Shown in pieces: positions 1-47,773 of a stretch of DNA of 64,000 nucleotides (positions are counted from its first letter, which is position 1; each line of letters opens with the position of its first letter). The notes beneath the pieces are model-generated. The model saw only the letters and a program-made list of their open reading frames with translations. It was not told the DNA's origin and did no database searches. Made by a program: the position numbers and the translations under genes. Source of the stretch: Escherichia phage RB49; sequence record NC_005066.1, one strand, 5' to 3'.

Positions 1-2109
1 TTAAAATTTAACATTCTTAACCAGTTTCATAAAGTCTTGTGCGCGTTTGTCATTATGCAGAATACGATACCAGTTATCTACAATATCATACAGTAACGGG
101 CTATTCTCTTTAAACTTCGCACAAACTGCTTTAATTCGTTCGTTTGCTGCCGTGAATTTTTCATCACAGATCTTTTTAGTTTCTTCGTCCATAATCCAAC
201 GAGTACGAAGGAGTAACTTGGAAACCTCTTTATTATAATGACGACCGTACAGTCTGTCAATAAATTCTGGAACACAGCGTTCTAGTTCATCGTCATGAAA
301 CAACATAGTGATCACACCCAGATATTCGCCATACCCCAGATGATTGGTCTTAACCTTCTTAGCCAGACCAGCCAGCTTACCGCGAACAAATTCTAGCGCA
401 CATTCCAATTGTTCGTCAACGAGATATTTTTGTGTCTCGTTTCGAGTAATAATATACTTTGTTACCCCGAAGTAGTCAAGCGCCGTATGTAATGTATTTT
501 CACTATAGATCGATTTACGACTACGGCTTTCGAATGCATCACCTACGCGGAACATGTGCAAGCCTGATAACTCGCGAATCTCTGCCGCTTTCATGTGATG
601 GCTGGTTTTATGCCAACTGTCACCAATCTTTTCCATGATATACACGTTAGGCAGCTTGGGAGTCGCTTCACGTTGTGTACGCTCGGTCTTTTCCGGTTTA
701 ACTGCTTTAGCACGCAGATCATCGGCCTCAGACACTTTAATCACGGTCATTTCAGAATCATCATAATACTGTTTGATGTACTCGAAAGTCTCCATATGTT
801 TTTCGTTGTTCTGACGGAACACCAGTACCTTTTTATTGATGCCGTATTCCTGGACCATGCCGTTAAGAGTCAGTGCACGCAGTTTCGGTTTATCGGTATC
901 ATCAATAAGACACGTAATATCTTCTTTATGCATCCATACAAAATGCGTAATGTTGTATTGACTGCTAACGAAAGCAGGGCGCAATTTACTGATTGTGTGA
1001 CGAGTACGATACAGAGTATACACCTGACCTTCTACGTCATTAGGCGAATCTTTACCCGCATTCACAAACTTATTATAGATTGCTACCGGATCGTCCCATT
1101 GTCCGATCTTACCCATCTTGCTAATAATATTGCGTTGCGTCGATGAATACTCGCTCATAAATTGCGCAAGTTTACGCTCTGTTTTAATGTTGGCGATCTT
1201 TTCTTTAACCTTTTCCAACATCATTTCATTGATTTCTGCAATGCGTTTTTCGATGTTCGCTTTAGTCTCAATTGACAAGTGAACTTCTTCACGCGATGGC
1301 ATAAGGTCCAGATCACCCAACTCAAAATTAATGTAAATGGTCTGGTGCTGGCGGTTTACAGCTTCTAACCATGTTCCTCGAACATATTCATACGGGATCG
1401 GATACTGGATCTTACCCATGATTGCATATACTACATAGGAATCGTTATCACGCCCATTGCAAACATAATAATTATCAAAGCTAGGGAAATAATTAATTTC
1501 GATTGCATTGATATTAGGTTTGTGTTCCCCAAAATGACGAAGTACAAATTGTGCTTCTCGATGCCATGTCTGAATGTCTTTTTCTTTCACCGGAATAGTG
1601 ATTTTCAGACCGTTGTCTTCATAGGTCGGTTCGTCGAAAATCTGCACCATTTTCGGCATAGAGTTTTGCACAAATGCAGTAAAGCCATAAGCGCGACCAT
1701 TGTAGTAGTTTACGATTGTAAAGGTGTCAGTATAGCTATAAGCAGACTTCGCACCTAAACCAAAAGATCCGATATAATCATTAGTCTGGTCTTTTGTTGA
1801 TTCAAAGTAAACCGTAAACAGTTGTTCTAATTCTTTCTTAGACGGAATACCAGTACCATAATCACGCACAGAAAAATACGGTTCGATTGCAGTCGGTAAA
1901 TGAATATCAAACGGACGATCTAAGGTTCCGGCTTCTTTGTGAGTGTCGGTAGCATTGCACGAATACTCACGGACGCAAGCACGCTCACAATATTGATAAG
2001 TGTTCTTAGAAAGCACCATAAAAGCCTTGCTACTTGCTTTCAGTGAAAAATCAACCGCACCGCTCAAGTCACTGCCAAATACTTCTTCATTATCAATATG
2101 CATTTTCAT
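1..2109 (-). CDS. rIIA: rIIA protein (GHKL ATPase-like; rapid-lysis/exclusion locus)
   Basis: 702 aa ORF; motifs DYGTGIP and GSFGLGAKS typical of rIIA N-terminal ATPase-like domain; SD GAGGA then ATG at 2107-2109; stop at 1-3. Confidence 0.85.
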   Translation of the reverse strand: MKMHIDNEEVFGSDLSGAVDFSLKASSKAFMVLSKNTYQYCERACVREYSCNATDTHKEAGTLDRPFDIHLPTAIEPYFSVRDYGTGIPSKKELEQLFTVYFESTKDQTNDYIGSFGLGAKSAYSYTDTFTIVNYYNGRAYGFTAFVQNSMPKMVQIFDEPTYEDNGLKITIPVKEKDIQTWHREAQFVLRHFGEHKPNINAIEINYFPSFDNYYVCNGRDNDSYVVYAIMGKIQYPIPYEYVRGTWLEAVNRQHQTIYINFELGDLDLMPSREEVHLSIETKANIEKRIAEINEMMLEKVKEKIANIKTERKLAQFMSEYSSTQRNIISKMGKIGQWDDPVAIYNKFVNAGKDSPNDVEGQVYTLYRTRHTISKLRPAFVSSQYNITHFVWMHKEDITCLIDDTDKPKLRALTLNGMVQEYGINKKVLVFRQNNEKHMETFEYIKQYYDDSEMTVIKVSEADDLRAKAVKPEKTERTQREATPKLPNVYIMEKIGDSWHKTSHHMKAAEIRELSGLHMFRVGDAFESRSRKSIYSENTLHTALDYFGVTKYIITRNETQKYLVDEQLECALEFVRGKLAGLAKKVKTNHLGYGEYLGVITMLFHDDELERCVPEFIDRLYGRHYNKEVSKLLLRTRWIMDEETKKICDEKFTAANERIKAVCAKFKENSPLLYDIVDNWYRILHNDKRAQDFMKLVKNVKF

Positions 2110-10022: not shown

Positions 10023-11051
10023 TTAAAATTTACAATATTTCATAAACCGCATTTTAGCCATCAGACCTTGTACGGTGTTCTCTTTGATATATTCCATGAT
10101 CTGGTCGCGTGTAGCGCCCTCGTCCTGAATCATGGCGTTAACGTCTTTAGAATGCCACGGGCAGCGATCCCACAAAACAATCTTTTCCCCTGCATTGATA
10201 AACTTTTCCAGTCGGTGCATTGTATCGGCAGACCGTGGTTCCGCATCAAGTACAAACACTCGCTGGTCTGGGAAAGGGATTTCATCTAATCCCAACGTAC
10301 CGCCAGTAATTGCACACCCGTTATCAATAAACAATGAATCGATCGGACCTTCTAAGAAATACACTGGTTTACTCGGATCGGCGCGTTCAAGACCATAGAC
10401 CTTACTCGCTAACTCATGAGTTTTAATCGTCATATATTTGGTCTTTCCGTAATCCTTTCTCAATGCTCTCCCCTGAATGGATTCTATCTTGTTCTCGCGG
10501 TTAAAGATAGGAATCACTAAACGCGGTTCAGGTTGTGGATTCTTGAAAGTATCAGCCTTAATGTGATTTGCTACCTTTTGCCATTCTCTCGTGAAATACA
10601 GAAGATCCCATTTATCGTGAGGGATGCAACGATCACTGACATACTTTATTATAGGATGATTAGCCGGAAGAGTATCTAATCTCTCGCAGAAAGGCAATGT
10701 TTGCACTTTCTTAATCTCCGGCTTTTCTACCTTTTTCAGTGGCTTGAACGTGGTGTTCTTGTGGTCGCCTTGTTCCTTCCGTCTCTCCATAAGCCATTCC
10801 CTGAATAGGTCCGGCTTATACTGTTTGAGAAATTCACCTAACGGCTGATTGTAGTTACAGTTGAAACAACCACAACGCAAACTATCCTTATAGGTATAGA
10901 TACGGAATCGCGCTTGAGTATGATTTTTCTTTGAGTCACCGCAGATCGGACAACTACAGACCAGCGTAAATGAGCTAGTATGCAACCGTTTAAAATTTCG
11001 TTCGCCGTATATGGCTTTTTCCGCTATTTCATAATCTGCGTAGTAAATCAT
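10023..11051 (-). CDS. 61: DNA primase
   Basis: 342 aa; zinc ribbon CPICGDSK...CFNCNY, Toprim FLEGPIDSLFIDNGCAITGG; near-collinear with T4 gp61. Confidence 0.9.
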   Translation of the reverse strand: MIYYADYEIAEKAIYGERNFKRLHTSSFTLVCSCPICGDSKKNHTQARFRIYTYKDSLRCGCFNCNYNQPLGEFLKQYKPDLFREWLMERRKEQGDHKNTTFKPLKKVEKPEIKKVQTLPFCERLDTLPANHPIIKYVSDRCIPHDKWDLLYFTREWQKVANHIKADTFKNPQPEPRLVIPIFNRENKIESIQGRALRKDYGKTKYMTIKTHELASKVYGLERADPSKPVYFLEGPIDSLFIDNGCAITGGTLGLDEIPFPDQRVFVLDAEPRSADTMHRLEKFINAGEKIVLWDRCPWHSKDVNAMIQDEGATRDQIMEYIKENTVQGLMAKMRFMKYCKF

Positions 11052-42960: not shown

Positions 42961-43039
42961 TTTGATTCTCCTTAAGAAAGTGTGTTTCGTTTTGATGTGT
43001 GTAGTATAGGGGATCACCGATCCCCTGTCAACAACTTTT
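42961..43039 (-). promoter_or_regulatory. early-promoter/stem-loop cassette with palindromic spacer
   Basis: TTGACA-GGGGATCGGTGATCCCC-TATACT. Confidence 0.5.
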
Positions 43040-43369
43040 TTATGATTTTAGTGAATTAACCACTACATCAAAATGATGTACAGAGCACACCTTACGAAAC
43101 ACATATTCATCATGTTTCGGAATCGCCCCCAACCGCTTTATTTCGCTCGCTGACACGATAAACCGTTTATCCGGTGCATTTACCTTATATGCTTCAACAA
43201 CGCACGGAAAACGCGTTTTAGCGAGTTCGGGATAGTTTTCTGACTCCATCAGGACAATGAATACACTATTACATTGATTGTAGAATCCTGTTTTTGATTT
43301 CATCAAGTTTTCTTCTATGTTCAAGTCGTGCAATCTTCCTTTCATGATTTCGTTGGTTCTTGTCTTCAC
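43040..43369 (-). CDS. hypothetical protein
   Basis: 109 aa ORF; start uncertain. Confidence 0.35.
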   Translation of the reverse strand: MKTRTNEIMKGRLHDLNIEENLMKSKTGFYNQCNSVFIVLMESENYPELAKTRFPCVVEAYKVNAPDKRFIVSASEIKRLGAIPKHDEYVFRKVCSVHHFDVVVNSLKS

Positions 43370-43610: not shown

Positions 43611-43864
43611 AGTTTCCTCAACCAGTTATTAAAGCTAGCAAACCATGATGCTTTTCGTGCTTCTTTTACTTTATGTGCACGAAAACCACTGAAACACCAT
43701 TCATAATCATCACTGAAACATGATTCAACAGGAACACCCGCATTTCGTAGTTCTCTGGTCTTTATCATGAATCCTTGACATAAGGGGCGACCTTCAACAA
43801 TGATAGGAAGTTTAACTTTTTCCATGAAAGTATACCCAGCACGGTCAATAATTTCAATCTTCAT
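43607..43864 (-). CDS. hypothetical protein, MKIEIID paralog 1
   Basis: 85 aa; MKIEIIDRAGYTFMEKVKLPIIVEGR. Confidence 0.45.
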   Translation of the reverse strand: MKIEIIDRAGYTFMEKVKLPIIVEGRPLCQGFMIKTRELRNAGVPVESCFSDDYEWCFSGFRAHKVKEARKASWFASFNNWLRKL

Positions 43865-43882
43865 AATATAATCCTCAATTAG

Positions 43883-44080
43883 TTATACCGCCCAGGCTTC
43901 ATTTGCACGAAAACACCATTCATACTCAGGAAAATAACCTTTAATTGGTACGCCAGCTTTTTGTAGTTCCTGTGTTTCTACAAGATAATCAAGCCCATAA
44001 CGACGACCTTCCACGATGATAGGAAGTTTAACGCCATTCATGAAAGAAAATCCACCGTCATCAATAATTTCAATTTTCAT
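43883..44080 (-). CDS. hypothetical protein, MKIEIID paralog 2
   Basis: 65 aa; MKIEIIDDGGFSFMNGVKLPIIVEGR. Confidence 0.45.
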   Translation of the reverse strand: MKIEIIDDGGFSFMNGVKLPIIVEGRRYGLDYLVETQELQKAGVPIKGYFPEYEWCFRANEAWAV

Positions 44081-44325
44081 TTTACATTATCTCCATAGAT
44101 CTTTCCAGCAATATCAATTTCACCAGCGCGAACATCTAGGATAAGATGCGGTAGGCGTATGCAGTTTTCCCACCCTACTCGCTTCATTTCTGAAACAGTG
44201 ACGTAAGCCCACCCGTTCGCTGTAATAAAGTCTACTTCAACCTTGAGAGGAAAGCAAGACTTTTCTATGTCTTCGAATCCGATAATGTGTTTTGTCGTTG
44301 AATATGGAATATATCCGGTGATCAT
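44077..44325 (-). CDS. hypothetical protein
   Basis: 82 aa ORF. Confidence 0.4.
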   Translation of the reverse strand: MITGYIPYSTTKHIIGFEDIEKSCFPLKVEVDFITANGWAYVTVSEMKRVGWENCIRLPHLILDVRAGEIDIAGKIYGDNVK

Positions 44326-44783: not shown

Positions 44784-45003
44784 TTCTTTTATATGGTACT
44801 ATAACAGGATTAATACAGCAAGCACCAATTACGTTATGAGCACCACAATTTAAACATTTATAGTCATGGAACTTATTAAGGAATCGACCAAACTCATAAC
44901 CGACTAGCGCCGCGTGTACTTGAGTCTCGATCTCATCCATATCAGCCAATGTTTTAACCTTCATAATATAATCCTCAAATTGTAGTTTTGCGAAGATGGT
45001 CAT
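44767..45003 (-). CDS. hypothetical Cys-rich protein
   Basis: 78 aa; CLNCGAHNVIGACC. Confidence 0.4.
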   Translation of the reverse strand: MTIFAKLQFEDYIMKVKTLADMDEIETQVHAALVGYEFGRFLNKFHDYKCLNCGAHNVIGACCINPVIVPYKRNETEE

Positions 45004-45265
45004 TACATGCTTTTAATGCATCGGTCGCGGTGTCATAGCGAGTATTATCATAGCACCAATAACCATCTGTCAACTGATAAATTAATCCATCCTTTTTAGC
45101 TTCGATGAAAGACAATTCTTTGAAAGTTTCTACTTTCTTTGCTGATACTCCACGGTCACGGCGCTTATAGAGTTTAGCTAAAATGCGTTCAGCTTGTTCC
45201 TCTTTATCACCAGACAGATCCCAGATGATGTTTCGGATATGTTTGATTAATTGTTCAGTGGTCAT
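44975..45265 (-). CDS. hypothetical protein
   Basis: 96 aa ORF preceded by cassette RBS. Confidence 0.4.
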   Translation of the reverse strand: MTTEQLIKHIRNIIWDLSGDKEEQAERILAKLYKRRDRGVSAKKVETFKELSFIEAKKDGLIYQLTDGYWCYDNTRYDTATDALKACNDHLRKTTI

Positions 45266-45329
45266 CTTTGATTCTCCTTAGTTGGTATGTGTGCATTATA
45301 GCACTATGATTTTCATTGTCAACAACTAA
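45266..45329 (-). promoter_or_regulatory. early promoter cassette (TTGACA-N16-TATAAT)
   Basis: follows terminator, precedes AAGGAGAATCAA-ATG. Confidence 0.5.
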
Positions 45330-45360
45330 AAACAAAAAGGGCTATCCCGAAGGATAGCCC
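45330..45360 (-). terminator. rho-independent terminator
   Basis: hairpin GGGCTATCC-TTCG-GGATAGCCC followed by U-run on minus strand. Confidence 0.6.
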
Positions 45361-45366
45361 ATAAAA

Positions 45367-46143
45367 TTACACGCGAGCACCGTAGATCGTGCCTACTTTA
45401 TCCCAGCGTGGAGCATTACCAGTAACGGCTTTACCAGCAGCACCACCGTTATATTCTGTACCGTTCCCCTGAGTATTACATCTTCCTCCAGCAGCACCAA
45501 CGTTACCGCCCGCACCGCCTGTATATGCACTAAGAGACCCCTCACCAACAGATCCTTTACCCGGAGCGGAAATGGAGCCAGCGGTTGCACCAGAACCCAT
45601 ATTAGAGGAAGACCCACCAGCACCGAATGGGCGACCACCACCGCCACCAAATACTAGTCGACCCCTGTTACCGCCACCACCACCGCCACCACCGCCAGCG
45701 ATAGCACCGTTATTTGTAATTCGTAGACGTGTACCGATAGCGTTATTGATTGCGTTTCCACCAGCAGCGCCAGCCGCGTTACTACCACCGTTACCCCCAC
45801 GTCCGTAGACAGTCACACCGGAGTTAATGATCAATGTTACATATTCGTTTGTTAACGAGCTAGGGAAGTCAAGACAAGGAACGCCAGTAGATTGGGAAAC
45901 AATATTACCCGTGATAGTAATTACTACCGGAGTAGATCCTTGTGCTTTCATCCAGTTAATAAGAGTGTCTTTATTGTAAGAGTTACTAGCACCAATGCTA
46001 TAATGAATCTCTTTAGAGCGTCCGACCATTGCCGACATATACGCCGGACGACCTAAGCGAACAGCTTGCATTGCGGCGCTCATCCACCGTTGACCAGTCT
46101 CGGACACAGCCGATGATCCGACCCAACCTGCTTTAATTGCCAT
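45367..46143 (-). CDS. glycine-rich protein (N-terminal globular region + Gly/Ala/Asn-rich low-complexity C-terminus)
   Basis: 258 aa; runs such as GGGGGGGGGNRGRLVFGGGGGRPFGAGG; GGN codon run raises local GC. Confidence 0.5.
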   Translation of the reverse strand: MAIKAGWVGSSAVSETGQRWMSAAMQAVRLGRPAYMSAMVGRSKEIHYSIGASNSYNKDTLINWMKAQGSTPVVITITGNIVSQSTGVPCLDFPSSLTNEYVTLIINSGVTVYGRGGNGGSNAAGAAGGNAINNAIGTRLRITNNGAIAGGGGGGGGGNRGRLVFGGGGGRPFGAGGSSSNMGSGATAGSISAPGKGSVGEGSLSAYTGGAGGNVGAAGGRCNTQGNGTEYNGGAAGKAVTGNAPRWDKVGTIYGARV

Positions 46144-46197
46144 AAAGTTTCCTCACAAGAAAAGCCCCAATTAAGGGGCATTGATTGATAATATTAC

Positions 46198-46419
46198 TTA
46201 GATGATCTCTGCTTCACCATTCAGGAAGAAAGACCATGTTTTGTTAGGATAGCGAAGCGCCCATGATTCGGCAGTTTTAACACCAGCTTCGAACAATTGA
46301 CGGCTGGTCACTTTAGCCATACCATCTTCGATGGCAACGTTTTCAATAATCATCGGGTACTTAGCGCCACGCATGAAACCGAAGCCAGCGGAAGACTTGA
46401 TAATTTTAACAGTTGCCAT
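46198..46419 (-). CDS. hypothetical protein, MKIEIID-family paralog 3
   Basis: 73 aa from ATG 46417-46419 (MATVKIIKSSAGFGFMRGAKYPMIIENV). Confidence 0.45.
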   Translation of the reverse strand: MATVKIIKSSAGFGFMRGAKYPMIIENVAIEDGMAKVTSRQLFEAGVKTAESWALRYPNKTWSFFLNGEAEII

Positions 46420-46507
46420 TTTGATTCTCCTAGAAAGTGTATCTCGTTTCGATGGGTGTATTATGCAATAACACCGGATCGCTGTCAACACTTTCTAAGA
46501 AAAATTT
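46420..46507 (-). promoter_or_regulatory. early promoter cassette (TTGACA-N17-CATAAT)
   Basis: conserved leader CACCCATCGAAACGAGATAC then AGGAGAATCAAA-ATG. Confidence 0.5.
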
Positions 46508-46792
46508 TTAAACTAATCGAATATAACCCAGAATTTCAGCACCTTTAGCCAGTTCTAAAACTTCCCATTCAAGGTCTCCGTAGTCATAATTTGCAACCAT
46601 CAACTGACCATTTTTCATGCAGCAATCATGAGAGAAAATTTGCCCCGCATAAACTACGATAGTAATAAACTTTCCTGATTCTGGCGGTGTGGAAGACAAA
46701 GCGACCATATGATCATTCAGCTTAGTCACCAGTGATGGAACAATAAAATTCGGGCTTACCTGAATACCGTTAAATTCGTTTGTGTCTTTCAT
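46508..46792 (-). CDS. hypothetical protein
   Basis: 94 aa ORF. Confidence 0.45.
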   Translation of the reverse strand: MKDTNEFNGIQVSPNFIVPSLVTKLNDHMVALSSTPPESGKFITIVVYAGQIFSHDCCMKNGQLMVANYDYGDLEWEVLELAKGAEILGYIRLV

Positions 46793-47139
46793 GCCATACC
46801 CCTTAAAACACTAATAGCATAATCATGCTGGTTATTCATAATATCAATTGCATTGTGATAACGAGCTAAACCATCAAGGATAAATTCTTGTTTATCCTGT
46901 TTCAGTTTGGTATCACGCGCAGCCATAAGAGCATCAAGAACAGGTCCAAAGTGATTATCTAATTCATCTTCGGTTGCAATGTTTCCTATTGCCTCGTCGA
47001 TCCGTGATTCTAATGCTTGCTTTTCGTTGATCACTTGCTGGGTATATTCCAACACATCAAGAATATCGCGGGTAACGTCGCCATGATAAGGTGTTCCCGC
47101 ATGAAGGTAATCAATTAGTCGTTGAATGTCAATGTTCAT
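46789..47139 (-). CDS. hypothetical protein
   Basis: 116 aa ORF. Confidence 0.45.
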   Translation of the reverse strand: MNIDIQRLIDYLHAGTPYHGDVTRDILDVLEYTQQVINEKQALESRIDEAIGNIATEDELDNHFGPVLDALMAARDTKLKQDKQEFILDGLARYHNAIDIMNNQHDYAISVLRGMA

Positions 47140-47474
47140 TTGTAACCCTCCTCTGAAAGTACATCCCAGATCGTTGAGTCAAGGTGCATTAAATTCCACA
47201 TAATAGAGTCATAACTACCGAAGCCAGAAGTAAAAATTACATCACACTGGCGATAGGTCTTATGAAAATCGGTGGCTGTCTCTGCATCAATAGGCATATC
47301 GTCACCGGAAAGCACCAGACATTTAAGAATCATAACTCTGTTAGCCGTTGGCGCTTGCTTAGTCTTTTCAGCATATTTTTCGATGATCCGTTTTGCCTTT
47401 TCTTCTTTGATACGTCCAGACCAAATCCGGTTTCGGTATTGATTCATAATAATTTCAATCACATCATTTTGCAT
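47136..47474 (-). CDS. hypothetical protein
   Basis: 112 aa ORF. Confidence 0.45.
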   Translation of the reverse strand: MQNDVIEIIMNQYRNRIWSGRIKEEKAKRIIEKYAEKTKQAPTANRVMILKCLVLSGDDMPIDAETATDFHKTYRQCDVIFTSGFGSYDSIMWNLMHLDSTIWDVLSEEGYK

Positions 47475-47509
47475 TCTTCACGGTCTCCATAATTGTTTTG
47501 TAAGCCAGT

Positions 47510-47674
47510 TTAAGATGATTCACCGAAAAACTTTGCGGTGTTACCCTTCGGATCGCGGAGCATGGTTTCTACGATCTCATCGGCAGTAACAATTTCTCCT
47601 TTCTTTGCTGCATGTTCTACCATATACTTCAAAGTTTCTTCGGAAGCAAGTGCTGCGGCTACTGGATTAATCAT
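47510..47674 (-). CDS. small hypothetical protein (54 aa, below cutoff)
   Basis: hand-translated MINPVAAALASEETLKYMVEHAAKKGE...; ATG directly after cassette RBS. Confidence 0.35.
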   Translation of the reverse strand: MINPVAAALASEETLKYMVEHAAKKGEIVTADEIVETMLRDPKGNTAKFFGESS

Positions 47675-47740
47675 TTTGATTCTCCTTTGTTGTCGATGTG
47701 TGCATTATGCTATACTCTATTCCGGTTGTCAACACCTAAA
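47675..47740 (-). promoter_or_regulatory. early promoter cassette (TTGACA-N17-CATAAT)
   Basis: conserved leader and AAGGAGAATCAAA-ATG. Confidence 0.5.
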
Positions 47741-47773
47741 AACGAAAAAGCCACCCTTTCGGATGGCTTTTTG
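47741..47773. terminator. bidirectional rho-independent terminator
   Basis: hairpin AGCCACCC-TTTC-GGATGGCT flanked by A-run and T-run. Confidence 0.6.

Follow-up and report, generated by a model that had tools for sequence, protein, structure and literature searches.

The question raised by this locus is what a long glycine-rich gene is doing among short genes of the early type. It lies in a 64,000-nt stretch of DNA from Escherichia phage RB49 (record NC_005066.1; the whole stretch is referred to below as the window), as a 258-codon open reading frame (ORF) on the (-) strand. The rest of the window is the early and replication arm of a T4-like genome, with rIIA, topoisomerase, dda, gp41, gp43, gp46, and nrdD, all on the (-) strand. 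The original prediction, made from the DNA letters without database searches, took the ORF for a low-complexity protein expressed as an independent unit. We find instead that it is very probably gene 38 (g38) of a Krischvirus, an RB49-like, T4-related coliphage, and encodes an adhesin, gp38, of the T2/T6/S16 type. Published work already covers the gene and its fold, the modular way in which it evolves, and its displacement in RB49-like phages, and the identification brings no new biology; in the supplementary tables of Nolan et al. (2006), gene 38 of RB49 has exactly the coordinates found here.

Assignment to the gp38 adhesin family

With the gp38 adhesin family taken as Pfam entries PF05268 and PF21721 at their curated thresholds, the ORF product matches Gp38_N over residues 1 to 40 (E = 6e-18, 65 bits; cutoff, 25) and GP38, the phage tail fiber adhesin, over residues 45 to 258 (E = 7e-72, 242 bits; cutoff, 25). 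It also matches PHROG 2056 (“tail fiber protein; host specificity”; E = 3e-98), PDB entry 6F45 chain D, which is gp38 of Salmonella phage S16 (residues 1 to 256; E = 1.5e-50), and the receptor-binding domain of PP01 gp38 (PDB 9V85). There are 154 homologs at E <= 1e-5, and 794 phage records contain a match. Krischvirus relatives name this ORF gene 38, annotated as “distal long tail fiber adhesin” or “receptor-recognizing protein,” and the 1.4 kb around it shows 95 to 97% DNA identity to the Krischvirus genomes ELT3, KFS-EC, RB49, JSE, and Phi1. The gp38 proteins of RB49, Phi1, and JSE are 97 to 99% identical to the one encoded here, are equal to it in length, and come with matching flanking ORFs, hairpin, terminator, and promoters; they differ by a few substitutions, including residues 4 and 5, which are KA here and in JK32 and SS in Phi1, RB49, JSE, and GEC-3S.

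An AlphaFold2 model built on 55 homologs (a predicted, not a solved, structure) has a mean predicted local distance difference test (pLDDT) score of 93.6, with no segment below 50. In a Foldseek search against the PDB, this model retrieved 6F45_D (E = 1.6e-22; template modeling [TM] scores of 0.82/0.85; root mean square deviation of 2.6 Å) and 9V85_C (TM of 0.76/0.88), and no other fold at E < 1. Disorder and structure prediction had been suggested along with the original prediction, and the model now speaks for a folded adhesin. Like gp38 of S16 and PP01, the protein combines a helical attachment domain, a β-helix, and a polyglycine-II sandwich, at ~42% identity and TM scores of 0.82 to 0.88, and it keeps the GGGGGGGG helix and the GGGGGRP(F/L)GAGG motif; the differences lie in the receptor-specificity loops and in one residue of the attachment domain discussed below. 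None of the evidence contradicts the identification as gp38.

By homology to the S16 gp37-gp38 complex, gp38 would be monomeric and would cap each long tail fiber, its three-helix bundle docking on the tip of the gp37 trimer once the C-terminal chaperone domain of gp37 has been removed. The attachment domain would be followed by a short β-helix, two long excursions of which would form a three-layer polyglycine-II sandwich made of the Gly-rich motifs, with the hypervariable loops between these motifs as the distal receptor-binding face. In the model, the helices of the attachment domain span residues 8 to 16, 21 to 27, and 36 to 39, and W7, W20, and Y35 are located at the helix apices; in S16, three apex tryptophans plug into pockets of gp37 (PMC6851490).

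One competing explanation, although a highly unlikely one, is that the product is a gp38 of the T4 type, i.e., an assembly chaperone that is absent from the virion and does no more than help gp37 to fold. In its favor, JSE, GEC-3S, and teqhal annotate the protein as “distal long tail fiber assembly catalyst.” However, what the ORF product matches is the adhesin family and the S16 chain bound to gp37 in the crystal structure, whereas the sequence of T4 gp38 is said to be very different (PMC6851490). Moreover, point mutations in gp38 alter the host range of RB49 (PMC9569957), and Phi1 gp37 has an intramolecular chaperone of its own, a Peptidase_S74 domain at residues 872 to 931.

Two further observations concern this gene and its surroundings. 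The N-terminal attachment domain of gp38 by itself (residues 1 to 54 or 1 to 64) matches tail-fiber adhesin genes of ~60-kb phages unrelated to T4 at 44 to 49% identity, namely, phiON-2011 (KU298437.1, 60.9 kb; positions 42980 to 43171) and phi315 (PV189403.1, 59.5 kb; positions 10500 to 10664), a similarity that hints at a docking module shared across phage families. In addition, one RB49 assembly is 96.4% identical to the window over the 1.4 kb around g38, and the coordinates of two terminators (45339-45360 and 46164-46179) equal those in the RB49 reference table, which indicates collinearity of the window with RB49 starting at position 1.

Displaced position of g38

In S16, T2, T6, and PP01, g38 directly follows the 3' end of g37 in the late fiber operon, whereas here some 55 kb separate the two genes, and g38 is encoded on the early strand within the early hyperplastic region, where its flanks are small ORFs of the early type and not g37. 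The arrangement is visible in Phi1, where g34 to g37 are located at 145 to 154.6 kb on the opposite strand (g37 at 151.6 to 154.6 kb). A 79-aa ORF and then the holin gene come next, and g38 is found at 45 kb among small early ORFs. The displacement from g37 in RB49-like phages has been described by Trojet et al. (2011), and a 2026 bioRxiv preprint puts gp38 ~55 kb from gp37 in Krischvirus. The expectation that such a gene would be unusual among early genes is thus borne out.

A gene in this position could be a redundant or decaying copy, with the working adhesin encoded elsewhere, beside g37. This explanation, which we rate as no more probable than the chaperone one, would fit the distance from the fiber operon, the lack of a late promoter, and the polymorphism of the site: among 57 Krischvirus records, the site occupied in the window is contiguous and empty in 13, FL04 is a 14th in which the empty-site match is interrupted by the end of the record, and 42 to 43 records have it filled by the g38 cassette. 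However, genomes of the Phi1 type have no other gp38 homolog, as the 79-aa ORF after g37 is unrelated, and in nearly every genome tblastn locates gp38 at a single place in the record. All annotated relatives that we examined keep the frame open, with none of the frameshifts that had been named as grounds for abandoning the original prediction, and the ratio of nonsynonymous to synonymous substitution rates (dN/dS) is 0.08 to 0.25 throughout, a sign of purifying selection. Finally, 11 of the 14 genomes with the empty site carry a canonical g38 beside g37 instead (the check covered all but G2248, G37-3, and UPWr_E1), which suggests one g38 copy per genome. A difference in the position of g38 between FL37 and FL38, on the one hand, and FL04, FL15, and FL20, on the other, is mentioned briefly in one paper.

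The genomes with a canonical g38, such as kvi, FL04, FL15, FL20, and MIZ4/5, belong to the same genus, the DNA polymerase of kvi being 99.8% identical to that of the window. Their gp38 resembles the one encoded here in its C-terminal half (82% protein identity; 93 to 96% DNA identity over nt 481 to 660 of g38 and 80 to 96% over nt 421 to 720) and differs in its N-terminal half (51% protein identity). Their gene order is the canonical g37-g38-79-aa ORF-holin gene, and the site used in the window is empty. In these genomes, the 3' end of g37 and the 5' half of g38 show 92 to 93% DNA identity to Tequatrovirus, and the last 13 nt of an RB49-type g37 remain on the 3' side of g38. The Tequatrovirus-like stretch, together with this remnant, suggests that the canonical g38 of the kvi type was imported secondarily from Tequatrovirus into an RB49-type backbone, the displaced copy having been lost. 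On the N-terminal side of the conserved S74 chaperone domain, Phi1 and kvi show only weak similarity in their gp37 tips (36% identity over the whole alignment). Divergent gp37 tips, the 51% identity of the gp38 N-terminal domains, and the tyrosine in place of an apex tryptophan are consistent with covariation of the docking partners.

In kvi (MN850615.1), the match to the DNA polymerase gene is split in two by a “hypothetical protein” and spans 3.8 kb instead of 2.7 kb (positions 117886 to 121705), suggesting that it holds an inserted element that the window lacks.

Glycine motifs and variable loops

The ORF and the peptide quoted from it in the original prediction are present, and glycine accounts for 60 of its 258 residues, with 12.5% Gly in residues 1 to 120 and 32.6% in residues 121 to 258. 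The predicted GC island is confirmed as well: GGT accounts for 38 of the 60 Gly codons, the GC content of the C-terminal half of g38 is 0.55 versus 0.40 for the window, and 200-nt windows over the gene reach 0.545 to 0.60 versus 0.34 to 0.48 in the neighboring few kilobases. The label of a low-complexity protein had to be dropped. In S16 gp38, the Gly-rich motifs fold as ten polyglycine-II helices packed in a three-layer “polyglycine sandwich” (PMC6851490); in our model, pLDDT exceeds 90 across the entire Gly-rich half, and the Gly runs are ordered helices of this kind. The model thereby rules out disorder or low complexity, and the Gly richness and the GC island can be attributed to the polyglycine-sandwich fold.

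Conservation follows the same pattern. In an alignment of 111 homologs, the invariant Gly columns are 114 to 117, 128 and 129, 152 to 155, 167 to 170, 210 to 213, 219, and 237, and entropy is the highest at 181 to 208 and 221 to 230. Variation in repeat length across relatives, which was to be looked for according to the original prediction, is narrow, as the long poly-G run comprises 7 to 9 residues in 103 of the 111 homologs; this constraint argues that the run has a structural role and is not a low-complexity tract free to expand. A slippage-driven contingency locus was also considered and rejected: the GGN runs do contain short repeats of 9 to 12 nt, but the poly-G run is fixed at 7 to 9 residues.

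The composition, with 33% Gly in the C-terminal half, is also all that connects the protein to a toxin made early in infection, i.e., a colicin or pyocin translocation domain or a microcin-like precursor, which the original prediction had named next to fibers as typical homes of Gly-rich sequence. The fiber part of that guess has held up, the product being a tail-fiber tip adhesin. The toxin part, which we consider extremely improbable, has not: there is no colicin or microcin match in Pfam at E <= 1 and none in any other search, and the Gly-rich half is predicted to be ordered and superposes on the gp38 polyglycine sandwich. Least probable of all, to the point of being negligible, is that the ORF is a product of chance or that its proline-rich (+) counterpart is the true gene. 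GC-rich repeats can hold frames open on both strands, but the (-) frame has the homologs and phage-record matches counted above, purifying selection, and a conserved ribosome-binding site and ATG; the mirror ORF, of 78 aa, is spurious, as originally proposed.

In contrast to the framework of Gly motifs, the loops between them diverge rapidly. Across seven Krischvirus genomes, nucleotide diversity (pi) peaks at 0.12 to 0.24 in positions 45400 to 45800 versus 0.01 to 0.07 in the N-terminal half of g38 and both flanks. Between the window and GEC-3S, dS rises from 0.16 in one half of g38 to 1.1 in the other, a jump that points to module replacement rather than to positive selection in place. GEC-3S and JK32 carry the specificity module that is found in Tequatrovirus teqhal, and the window has the RB49/Phi1 module. 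Overall, gp38 is up to 76% identical to its Tequatrovirus counterparts, whereas for DNA polymerase, identity is at least 99% among Krischvirus members and only ~55% to Tequatrovirus, the signature of a horizontally exchanged host-range determinant. Hypervariable segments between the Gly motifs are the distal receptor-binding loops in S16 gp38 (PMC6851490; Trojet et al., 2011), and host-range mutants of RB49 carry the gp38 changes E230K/Y231S (PMC9569957); both E230 and Y231 are present here, within the most variable loop (residues 221 to 231). RB49 is listed as targeting OmpA, with an AlphaFold3 model of the gp38-OmpA complex, in a 2026 bioRxiv preprint, and the receptors named in the literature for RB49-type gp38 alleles are OmpA and certain O antigens.

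Transcription signals

The original prediction gave the gene an upstream promoter cassette of its own and a downstream terminator. The terminator is there (45360-45339; 9-bp stem, -17.7 kcal/mol, z = -5.1), is conserved, and corresponds to the RB49 terminator “ORF078c<--38” of Nolan et al. (2006), with 9 bp and a TransTerm score of 100. No promoter is located directly upstream of g38. The nearest one, of the sigma-70 type (46488-46460), is 316 nt away, ahead of a 73-aa ORF that has no match in Pfam, and a search within that ORF yielded only a weak best match (9/12) to a sigma-70 promoter. The hairpin between this ORF and g38 (46164..46179), which we infer to be a weak terminator or attenuator, is listed for RB49 as “38<--RB49ORF080c,” 5 bp, in Additional File 6 of Nolan et al. 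(2006), whose promoter predictions Pe:46502 and Pe:45336 likewise coincide with the two promoters found here. Promoters, hairpin, and terminator are conserved in the seven Krischvirus genomes; the hairpin stem is invariant, the sole substitution being in the loop, in JSE. Given this order of promoter, 73-aa ORF, hairpin, and g38, the gene comes second in its unit, preceded by an attenuator-like hairpin, and does not form a promoter-gene-terminator unit by itself, contrary to what had been proposed.

Late promoters were sought on the (-) strand from 46144 to 48900 as exact TATAAATA, relaxed ATAAATA, and one-mismatch variants. There is no (T/A)ATAAATA motif between g38 and 48724, a position upstream of rI, and the only one-mismatch match, TATGAATA at 46840, falls inside a coding region; a 12-bp terminator intervenes between the motif at 48724 and g38. 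Nolan et al. (2006) predicted a single late promoter, Pl:48756, in the first 64 kb of RB49 and none at g38. In Phi1, g34 and g36 have TATAAATA ~30 nt upstream. RB49 has no MotA and is absent from the phages listed with AsiA. Transcription of g38 would accordingly start at the sigma-70-type promoter at 46488, and possibly also at 47732, would pass the weak 5-bp hairpin by read-through, and would end at the strong terminator; i.e., g38 may be expressed by read-through from early-type promoters.

Several points weigh against the picture of a gp37-docked tip adhesin that is expressed in this way. It is unusual for a virion protein to lack a late promoter, the hairpin ahead of g38 (46179-46164) might terminate transcription efficiently, and we found no Krischvirus transcriptome data in the literature. 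On the structural side, W7 and W20 are present but the third apex tryptophan of S16 is Tyr35 here; this position is W in 60 and Y in 30 of the 111 homologs. Finally, g37 is located outside the window, so the gp37 partner was looked at in the relative Phi1 only, and the tip of Phi1 gp37 shows no sequence match to the gp37 chains of 6F45.

Other sequence features were noted along the way. The late-promoter core heptamer ATAAATA is strongly depleted in the window (8 copies versus 23.6 +/- 5.5 expected), and 3 of the 8 copies cluster on the (-) strand at 48724-48811, upstream of rI, matching Pl:48756 of RB49. A 16-nt inverted repeat with 88% complementarity (46425-46440 and 46488-46503) brackets the promoter of the 73-aa ORF and may form a long-range stem-loop of the PeSL type (defined below) that encloses the promoter.

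The g38 cassette and PeSL elements

Small early ORFs of RB49 and Phi1 are known to be associated with promoter/stem-loop (PeSL) elements, which consist of an intergenic stop codon, an AT-rich tract, a stem-loop, a near-consensus sigma-70 promoter, a Shine-Dalgarno (SD) sequence, and an ATG (Arbiol et al., 2010; PMC2839356). The sequence on the 3' side of g38 (45366-45266), with a 9-bp stem-loop, TTGACA-16-TATAAT, AAGGAG, and ATG, fits this definition. At the opposite boundary (46197-46144), only a stem-loop and an SD sequence are found and there are no promoter hexamers, which leaves a PeSL on one side of the cassette. In kvi, the site contains a single PeSL, TTGACA-cGGGGAgaaaTCCCCg-TATAAT, between homologs of the two flanking ORFs. 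Comparison with the empty site puts the cassette junctions at the upstream stop codon (46197) and between the -10 box and the SD sequence (~45291); crossovers in PeSL mini-circles have been mapped at the stop codon/AT-rich zone and, similarly, between the -10 box and the SD sequence (PMC2839356). Homologous recombination between the two flanking stem-loops was considered as an excision route and set aside, as no similarity between them is obvious by eye and the junctions fall elsewhere.

The g38 cassette thus resembles the PeSL + ORF cassettes of RB49 and Phi1 (PMC2839356) in its location in the hyperplastic region of small early ORFs, its downstream PeSL, its presence/absence polymorphism, and its junction sites. 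It differs from them in carrying an essential virion gene instead of an ORFan and in the promoterless upstream boundary; g38 is not discussed by Arbiol et al. (2010). We would suggest, with considerable doubt, that the adhesin of RB49-type Krischvirus is the sole fiber component on the early schedule, carried by a horizontally mobile, PeSL-bounded host-range cassette that is transcribed from sigma-70 promoters through a leaky attenuator, instead of from a gp55 late promoter, and is gained and lost as a unit; of the proposals made here, this is a tentative one that may well prove wrong.

Feature coordinates and neighboring genes

TABLE 1 Features at and around the g38 locus of the window (residue numbers refer to gp38)
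Feature	Position	Strand	Remarks
g38 cassette	45291..46197	(-)	Comprises leader hairpin, g38, terminator, and promoter; genomes with the empty site, e.g., kvi, have a 40-nt PeSL core instead
g38 ORF	45367..46143	(-)	ATG start, 258 aa; very probably gene 38, long-tail-fiber tip adhesin gp38 (receptor-recognizing protein)
N-terminal helical attachment domain	46024..46143	(-)	Codons 1-40; predicted to dock on the gp37 trimer tip; Pfam Gp38_N, model, S16 alignment
Gly-rich motifs and hypervariable loops	45370..45807	(-)	Codons 113-258; predicted polyglycine-II sandwich and receptor-binding face; GC island
Gly-rich motifs of gp38	YGRGGNGG 113-120; G150-G158; GGGGGRPFGAGG 166-177; GGAGGNVGAAGG 209-220; NGGAAG 232-237		Conserved or invariant in 111 homologs
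Hypervariable loops of gp38	159-165, 178-208, 221-231		Most variable in 111 homologs
Proline-rich ORF, 78 aa, spurious	45572..45808	(+)	Antisense image of the GGN runs; without independent support; overlaps a (-) gene under purifying selection
SD sequence of g38, GAGG	46151..46154	(-)	7 nt ahead of the ATG; read from the sequence; invariant in 7 Krischvirus genomes
Putative attenuator-like hairpin	46164..46179	(-)	GCCCC-ttaatt-GGGGC, then TTTTCTT; 5 bp; between the 73-aa ORF and the ribosome-binding site of g38
73-aa ORF	46198..46419	(-)	Homolog of Phi1 ORF080; leads the transcription unit that includes g38
Sigma-70-type early promoter	46460..46488	(-)	TTGACA-17-CATAAT, 11/12; nearest upstream of g38; Pe:46502 of Nolan et al. 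(2006)
Strong intrinsic terminator	45339..45360	(-)	9-bp stem, UUCG loop, T tract; 6 nt past the g38 stop codon
Perfect sigma-70 promoter of the next gene	45295..45322	(-)	12/12, TTGACA-16-TATAAT with TG; downstream of g38
12-bp terminator	47772-47745	(-)	Between the late motif at 48724 and g38

The small ORFs on either side of g38 have distant paralogs nearby, all on the (-) strand: 46198-46419 is similar to 43883-44080 (32% identity, E = 2e-6), and 44975-45265 is similar to 47136-47474 (37% identity, E = 4e-5). These pairs suggest that families of small genes have been duplicated in the hyperplastic region. In the same set of seven genomes, two more diversity hot spots, at 43800-44100 and 47800-48000, show pi of 0.2 to 0.57 versus 0.01 to 0.07 around them and are probably ORF replacements.

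Implications

In most T-even-like phages, host range is determined mainly by gp38, which is also a target in the engineering of therapeutic phages. Its correct naming matters, as several GenBank records keep “hypothetical protein” or “assembly catalyst.” The expression of a virion protein in the absence of a recognizable late promoter poses a modestly useful question. The polymorphism of the g38 position within a single genus amounts to a natural experiment on the mobility of the cassette and on the coevolution of the gp37 tip with the N-terminal domain of gp38. If g38 is indeed an early, mobile cassette, this arrangement would uncouple the exchange of the adhesin from the remaining fiber operon.

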